IMG/VR virus record: IMGVR_UViG_2526164633_000030
DNA length: 11,761 nucleotides
Strand: one strand, 5' to 3'
DNA from: a virus
Lineage: Duplodnaviria > Heunggongvirae > Uroviricota > Caudoviricetes
Below are positions 1 to 479 of this stretch, one piece after another. Below the pieces are notes generated by a model. It searched no databases. It saw nothing but the letters and a program-made list of their open reading frames with translations, and was not told the origin of the DNA. Position 1 is the first letter of the stretch, and each line of letters opens with the position of its first letter. Both the position numbers and the translations under genes were made by a program.

Positions 1-41
1 ATGATGATTTTTCTGCGGGAAAGTCTTCGACGGCGAGCTGA
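1..41 (+). CDS. G: 3' end of tail assembly chaperone G (partial, start outside window)
   Basis: Frame 2 is open from the window edge and reads ...DDFSAGKSSTAS before a TGA at 39-41. It contains the GGGAAAG heptamer at 17-23 encoding Gly-Lys, as at the end of lambda G (recalled). Sits immediately upstream of the T-like frame, matching lambda gene order. Confidence 0.5.
   Translation, partial: DDFSAGKSSTAS
17..23 (+). other. programmed -1 ribosomal frameshift slippery heptamer G_GGA_AAG (G to G-T fusion)
   Basis: GGGAAAG at 17-23 in the G frame, 16 nt before the G stop. The -1 frame from this point reads GKVFDGELNFALRLAREMGRPDWRAMLAGMTSTEYADW, which is T-like. The conserved G/GT frameshift of lambdoid tail chaperones is established knowledge. 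Confidence 0.55.
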
Positions 42-479
42 ATTTTGCCCTCAGACTGGCGCGTGAGATGGGGAGGCCTGACTGGCGCGCCATGCTTGCC
101 GGGATGACATCCACCGAATATGCCGACTGGCGACATTTTTACCGTACGCATTATTTTCTCGATACCCAACTGGATATGCATTTTTCCGGGCTGACGTACG
201 CCGTACTCAGCCTGTTTTTTGCGATCCGGATATGCATCCCTCTGATTTCAGTCTGCTTGCCCCCCGGCGTGAGGAAGCGCAGACGGAGATGCCGGATGAG
301 GAAAAATGCTGATGCAGAAAGCGGCAGGACTTGCCGGAGGCGTCCGGTTTGGTGGGGACGGAGGGCGTGAGATTTTATCGTCTGCGGATGTGGCGGATGT
401 CAGCGAGGATGATGTCGCATTAATGATGGCTTCAGCGGGGATTTCCGGAGGTGTGAGATATGTCCCAGCCGGTTGGTGA
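17..479 (+). pseudogene. T: tail assembly protein T-like region, reading frame interrupted twice by apparent 1-bp deletions (near 221 and near 305)
   Basis: T-like sequence runs in frame 1 from 17 to 220 (...HFSGLTYAVLSLFF), continues in frame 0 from 223 to 305 (DPDMHPSDFSLLAPRREEAQTEMPDEEK), and finishes in frame 2 from 306 to 479 (MLMQKAAGLAGGVRFGGDGGREILSSADVADVSEDDVALMMASAGISGGVRY...), ending 20 nt into H. The frame-1 continuation after 220 (AIRICIPLISVCLPPGVRKRRRRCRMRK...) is Arg/Cys-rich and not protein-like. The six-frame ORF 68..370 is the frame-1 piece. Confidence 0.55.

Follow-up and report, generated by a model that had tools for sequence, protein, structure and literature searches.

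Two single-base homopolymer deletions that split the tail gene T of a lambdoid prophage in Escherichia coli DEC12B are probably consensus errors at a contig end

Introduction

In phage lambda, the tail genes G and T are expressed as a pair through a −1 ribosomal frameshift at the slippery sequence GGGAAAG (PMC3296357), where about 4% of ribosomes (about 1 in 30) slip and the products gpG and gpGT are found at a ratio of ~30:1 (PMC5009743, PMC3296357). The fusion protein is needed for tail assembly: the tape measure protein H becomes coated with G moieties, the T domain brings in the major tail protein V, and both gpG and gpGT are absent from the finished lambda tail (PMC5009743, PMC3296357).

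The stretch analysed here, referred to as the window, is 11,761 bp long and is the entire contig AIHB01000019.1 of the draft assembly GCA_000250235.2 (E. coli DEC12B), shown in reverse complement. Its first 479 positions carry the end of G and a T-like coding sequence that an initial annotation had described as split over three reading frames by two apparent single-base deletions. Two alternatives were left by that annotation, either a real lesion that would make the prophage defective for tail assembly or homopolymer-associated sequencing or assembly errors. Because the window is a complete draft contig, the T deletions have to be read differently, as changes located at a contig end.

Results

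A lambda-type G/GT locus with a broken T frame

In every sequence feature other than the continuity of T, the locus is a plain member of the lambda G/GT family. The contig starts inside G, whose CDS in annotated relatives ends at locus position 1541 (window position 41), and shortly upstream of the G stop, at a distance of a few codons, there is a heptamer of the form X XXY YYZ in the zero frame of the gene. This slippery site is intact, as had been stated, and it shares with lambda the same context (CTGCGGGAAAGT), a G stop shortly afterwards, and a T frame offset by −1 from that of G and running past the start of H (T stop at 477–479, H start at 460). The T frame is open from the slippery site (position 17 onward), the extension is homologous to gpT (PF06223), and the order V-G-T-H is seen in annotated relatives, V itself lying outside the contig. 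The features of this region are as follows.

1–41, plus strand: 3′ end of the tail assembly chaperone gene G (frame 3, ...AGKSSTAS*), stop TGA at 39–41; the contig starts inside the gene
17–23, plus strand: programmed −1 slippery heptamer of G/GT, G GGA AAG, intact; identical heptamer and context in lambda
17–220, plus strand: T segment 1, frame 2 (−1 relative to G), 68 codons, GKVFDGEL...LSLFF; covers PF06223 profile positions 1–35 only
68–370, plus strand: 100-aa open reading frame from the T start; first 51 residues native, last 49 out of frame; covers PF06223 profile positions 1–35 only
215–220, plus strand: T6 run, first 1-bp deletion; T7 in every intact relative
220–306, plus strand: T segment 2, frame 1 only, CDPDMHPSDFSLLAPRREEAQTEMPDEEK
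302–306, plus strand: A5 run, second 1-bp deletion; A6 in relatives with the same allele
306–479, plus strand: T segment 3, frame 3, MLMQKAAGL...VPAGW*, stop at 477–479

Unlike that of lambda, the T frame here is broken twice in the sequence as written. The initial annotation named its frames 1, 0 and 2 by 0-based offsets, which correspond to frames 2, 1 and 3 in our numbering, and its division of T holds: frame 2 from the slippery heptamer to 220 reads GKVFDGELNFALRLAREMGRPDW...LSLFF, frame 1 continues over 220–306, and frame 3 completes the gene over 306–479. The uninterrupted T frame expected of a G/GT pair is thus missing from the record on account of two 1-bp deletions, and no full-length gpGT can be encoded by the sequence as written. 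With both bases restored, the −1-frame product is 154 aa long, matches the Pfam family Phage_tail_T (PF06223) over profile positions 1–72 of 73 with a score of 47.5 bits, and aligns to lambda gpT at 73% identity over its full length, colinearly and in a single frame, which bears out the identification of the split gene as T. At the sites where this T allele has T7 and A6, lambda has TTTTTC and no A-run, so lambda is without the two fragile tracts.

A PGAP-style T start is the ATG at 68, and the exact 100-aa product that follows from it (68–370) was not found in a collection of 15 billion proteins. GenBank calls positions 312–479, part of T segment 3, a 55-aa hypothetical protein (EHX34080.1).

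Intact tail genes and an insertion in lom

The remainder of the contig carries the following features.

460–3039, plus strand: tape measure gene H, intact, 859 aa, preceded by a GGAGG ribosome-binding site of its own; begins before T has ended
3036–3365, plus strand: tail gene M, intact
3365–4063, plus strand: tail gene L, intact
4069–4812, plus strand: tail gene K, intact
4809–5390, plus strand: tail gene I, intact
5581–6108, minus strand: sodC, a moron encoding a Cu/Zn superoxide dismutase, placed between I and J, an arrangement also found in related prophages
6242–9718, plus strand: tail tip gene J, intact, 1158 aa
9787–9798, plus strand: first four codons of lom, the rest severed by the IS679 insertion
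9799–11761, minus strand: IS679 (IS66 family), partial, reaching the contig end; tnpC and tnpB broken by indels
2419–9875, no strand assigned: stretch matching NMEO01000086.1 at 100.000% identity without gaps

The exact H protein occurs on many contigs and adjoins an intact 137-aa T on the contigs that were inspected. The IS679 element is inserted after lom codon 4, the IS end starting with GTAAGCGG at 9799. No match to Rfam was obtained in the window. Two calls in the GenBank record merit a remark. J is given only 836 aa (7208–9718), although the 1158-aa open reading frame equals WP_000515029.1, and the short call is an annotation error of the source record; two IS66 fragments (9829–11399) are named 'cytochrome o ubiquinol oxidase', again a source annotation error.

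Two gaps and no substitutions against intact relatives

We aligned the DNA of window positions 1–600 with E. coli RM14723, E. coli O55:H7 CB9615 and an Stx2a phage. Over positions 1–480, the comparison with these three intact relatives gave exactly two gaps, T7 to T6 (215–220) and A6 to A5 (302–306), with 0 substitutions, and the same two were the only gaps between the nearest relatives and positions 1–6039. This match is a near-identity at the DNA level and not a chance likeness. The initial annotation had proposed an alignment of 1–480 with related T genes as a check on its reading; both 1-bp gaps were confirmed by it, no other gap appeared, and each shift is accordingly a single-base deletion in a homopolymer, as had been suspected. 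Once restored, T7 exceeds all other homopolymers of the contig in length, with A6 in the class just below it.

The double deletion is a sporadic outlier

A search of RefSeq with positions 150–380 as query (231 nt) returned 1,726 matching E. coli records, each of which was judged at its best-matching place. The best identity over these 1,726 records was 99.1%, with exactly both gaps, and in a 60-row sample spread over the ranking, all 54 full-length matches (54 of 54) spanned 233 nt for the 231-nt query. Neither deletion was found in RefSeq complete E. coli genomes at each record's best-matching place. A 112-nt pattern carrying both deletions had no match in IMG/VR or among the GTDB species representatives, and none in JGI metagenome contigs, the last in a search run without a positive-control count for T7. 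When the two changes were looked for separately, A5 alone gave 0 matches in IMG/VR, and T6 alone gave none in GTDB representatives or JGI metagenomes and 2 in IMG/VR, compared with more than 120 for T7 (a lower bound).

Among NCBI annotations, the 55-aa C-terminal T fragment appears only in DEC12B and in GCA_900009835.1, the latter of which carries neither deletion. A 57-aa open reading frame product present on four other contigs was considered as a possible common frameshift and was rejected, these being calls at contig edges with A6 or cases of a different change (C6 to C5).

The double deletion is therefore a sporadic outlier and not consistent with any clade. In a survey of homopolymer tracts, authentic variants followed clades and sporadic outliers were suspected errors (PMC4746626); by that clade criterion, the double deletion counts as a suspected error because it is sporadic.

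Length changes at the same tracts occur in error-laden assemblies

Contigs in which the T7 or A6 tract does vary in length are visibly laden with errors. In a Logan contig of run ERR2235284, T7 to T6 and A6 to A5 occur together with five other deletions in A/T runs within 3 kb. An ENA contig (ERZ504552) with a coverage of 1.8 has T7 to T8 and A6 to A5, plus four other 1-bp deletions. The two IMG/VR contigs with T6 alone are each otherwise damaged: one (L016) shows deletions in two other runs and a major tail gene V that is split, and the other (L015) has a split terminase. Within a 4.9-Mb contig, JBDIFK010000003.1, T carries a C6 to C5 change and H is in three pieces. More generally, JBDIFK010000003.1, ERR2235284 and ERZ504552 have many homopolymer deletions across G-T-H, with H appearing as 3–4 open reading frames, and they illustrate the frequency with which the region is mis-assembled.

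Indels of the contig lie toward its ends

Counted from the contig end, the two T deletions are at 215 and 302 nt, and both fall inside the terminal 306 nt. By comparison, the central 7,457 bp (2419–9875) equal the whole of an independent draft contig, NMEO01000086.1 (100.000% identity, no gaps), which stops 77 nt into IS679 with the same lom::IS679 junction. Since it ends in IS679 with an identical lom junction, NMEO01000086.1 comes from the same clone, and the insertion into lom is real because an independent assembly holds the identical junction. This only same-clone contig starts at 2419, which is outside T. The ends of NMEO01000086.1 fall exactly at 2419 and 9875, and its 77 nt within IS679 resemble a graph overlap at k=77; such an overlap would imply that in that clone's genome both IS679 and the part of the sequence to the left of about 2496 are repeats.

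Within this central stretch, all 33 runs of at least 5 bases, including eight 6-mers, are correct by comparison with NMEO01000086.1, and in the left part of the contig the C6 (260–265) and A6 (1468–1473) runs are also correct. Positions 1–2500 hold one private substitution and two indels. At position 900, in H, the contig has T and 28 of 28 close relatives compared have A; the change is private and synonymous.

At the opposite end, comparison of the IS679 sequence with intact copies revealed four indels and 0 substitutions.

About 10581, IS679 tnpC: loss of a single non-homopolymer T, frameshifting the transposase
10586–10590, IS679 tnpC: T4 to T5, private
10610–10612, IS679 tnpC: G3 to G2, private
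11602–11606, IS679: T4 to T5, private, breaking tnpB

The T loss at about 10581 is common to two IS679 copies of the sister assembly E. coli DEC12C (AIHC01000054.1 and AIHC01000006.1), which do not have the other three indels, and no such loss turned up among the IS679 copies of RefSeq complete genomes. As it is common to the two DEC12C copies, this change may be genuine, and it represents either a lineage-specific broken multicopy transposase or a systematic error of the sequencing project. The G3 to G2 and T4 to T5 changes, 25 nt apart (10586–10612), form a private −1/+1 pair that rewrites 8 tnpC codons and restores the frame. We considered whether the T loss and the neighbouring T4 to T5, 9 nt apart, could be a single flow-shift artefact, and rejected this, the T loss being present in DEC12C and the T4 to T5 pairing with G3 to G2.

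Altogether, 6 of 6 indels fall in the 4,304 nt outside the stretch matched by NMEO01000086.1 (binomial 0.0024, post hoc), and 5 of 5 private indels are at most 1,181 nt from a contig end ((2362/11761)^5 = 3e-4, post hoc). The contig extends ~2 kb into a multicopy IS and ~2.5 kb beyond the break of the other assembly; such an extent into repeats suggests that it is not the product of a plain short-read de Bruijn assembly. The DEC genome project is reportedly based on 454 and/or Illumina data assembled with Celera or Velvet, which we take as a lead only. A long-read assembly with failed short-read polishing in repeats was also considered, and the long-read part was dropped for this 11.8-kb draft contig.

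Discussion

We consider it probable, at roughly 0.7, that T7 to T6 and A6 to A5 are errors of homopolymer length left uncorrected in the consensus, at a contig end that derives from a repeat and has thin support. Each is a ±1 change in a mononucleotide run with flanks identical to relatives, both lie at a low-confidence contig end outside the stretch confirmed by NMEO01000086.1, and further indel-only differences (4 indels, 3 of them private) are present in the IS679 end of the same contig. Errors of homopolymer length are known to persist in repeats (PMC8812927), and the deletions resemble described homopolymer assembly errors in their ±1 run length, lack of substitutions, occurrence in the longest runs and at contig ends or repeats, and sporadic distribution (PMC4746626, PMC8812927). 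They differ from typical homopolymer-error assemblies in that the interior of the contig is error-free. Counting against an error, the contig is not generally error-ridden, and homopolymers are also natural hot spots of replication slippage. An indel-prone platform combined with an overlap or mate-pair assembler would be a fitting origin of the deletions, and we would expect the reads to contradict T6 and A5. The actual T of DEC12B would then read T7 and A6, be intact, and work as in lambda: at G GGA AAG, about 1 ribosome in 30 would shift into the −1 frame and produce gpGT instead of gpG, the tape measure protein H being bound through the G part of the fusion and the major tail protein V recruited through its T part. 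This G/GT mechanism, established for lambda, is carried over by homology and may be expected to apply here.

Between the two alternatives left by the initial annotation, the location at a contig end, the private occurrence and the freedom from substitutions speak for error and against a defect. The alternative that T is a genuine pseudogene, inactivated in this prophage copy by two independent replication-slippage deletions, is unlikely, although it is the rival to which the most can be credited. T7 and A6 are where slippage would be expected, the remaining homopolymers of the contig are correct, a second frameshift in the same gene would be neutral once the first had occurred, and one IS679 indel (the T loss at about 10581) is common to another assembly. 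Prophage decay is also plausible because of the real IS679 insertion in lom: this prophage is already damaged, as lom::IS679 is confirmed in an independent assembly, and it resembles the decaying lambdoid prophages of pathogenic E. coli in being lambdoid, with a sodC moron and an IS in lom. It differs from them in that genuine decay normally bears substitutions and is inherited by related strains, whereas the changes here are private and substitution-free; with 0 substitutions in T (1–480), there is no sign of relaxed constraint. The deletions are moreover absent from the best-matching places of the RefSeq records, 45 of them otherwise identical, and a search for the pair in IMG/VR, GTDB representatives and JGI metagenomes gave no match. 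Both lesions lie at most 306 nt from the contig end ((306/11761)^2 = 7e-4 if randomly placed), more private, substitution-free indels occur at the opposite contig end, and the neighbouring tail genes H, M, L, K, I and J are all intact. The loss of a gene product required for lambda tail assembly (PMC5009743, PMC3296357) would be the significance of a real lesion. The slipped product would consist of gpG, 68 native T-frame residues and a 49-residue basic out-of-frame tail ending at the stop at 368–370; without the second half of the T domain, it would fail to bring V to the G/GT-H complex, and the prophage's own genes would yield no tails, while H, for which a separate ribosome-binding site exists, would stay intact along with M, L, K, I and J. 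Even then the term 'defective' would need qualifying, because gpGT could come in trans from other lambdoid prophages of the same cell whose G-T is near-identical; many E. coli genomes carry the G-T-H segment at multiple sites (median 2, maximum 8). Given that the evidence favours sequencing or assembly error, the proposed defect of the prophage in tail assembly is probably unwarranted.

Other readings accept the deletions as real and ask more of them. Both T6 and A5 are short slippery runs, and slipping of tRNA-Lys and tRNA-Phe can occur on runs of A and of U. The correction of indels is among the subjects of a review (PMC5009743). Expression of T through extra recoding, by ribosomal −1 or transcriptional slippage at T6 and A5, is nonetheless almost certainly not the case: there is no X XXY YYZ heptamer in the frame that is read (CTG TTT TTT GCG; GAG GAA AAA TGC TGA), runs of 5–6 are too short for efficient transcriptional slippage, and the full product would take three low-efficiency events in succession. 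In relatives with this T allele, a single frame encodes T, so nothing conserved points to recoding. The recurrence of T6 variants in unrelated T alleles would fit a role of the T7 and A6 tracts as contingency (phase-variable) switches for prophage tail production within a population. That role is extremely improbable, however, as all such recurrences are in assemblies with many homopolymer errors or broken genes, tracts of 6–7 are short, and no length variants were found in RefSeq complete genomes or JGI metagenome contigs. Only slightly less remote, and still very unlikely, is a broader view in which the deletions are real and the T7 and A6 of this allele are recurrent mutational hot spots, such that gpGT would be the first function lost in lambdoid prophages of pathogenic E. 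coli, whose otherwise intact tail genes would then become dependent on gpGT from co-resident prophages in trans or be reversibly silenced.

Uncorrected homopolymer-length errors, our preferred explanation, involve no new biology here, the type of lesion being that of well-known assembly errors. If the deletions were real, they would amount to ordinary prophage decay in the well-understood lambda G/GT pair, giving tail-less particles unless complemented by another prophage. Whether error or genuine pseudogene, neither outcome alters current understanding. The main lesson concerns data quality: a frameshift within the last few hundred bases of an old draft contig should not be taken as prophage inactivation, and calls of 'defective prophage' in EPEC/EHEC draft genomes can be inflated by contig-end frameshifts.
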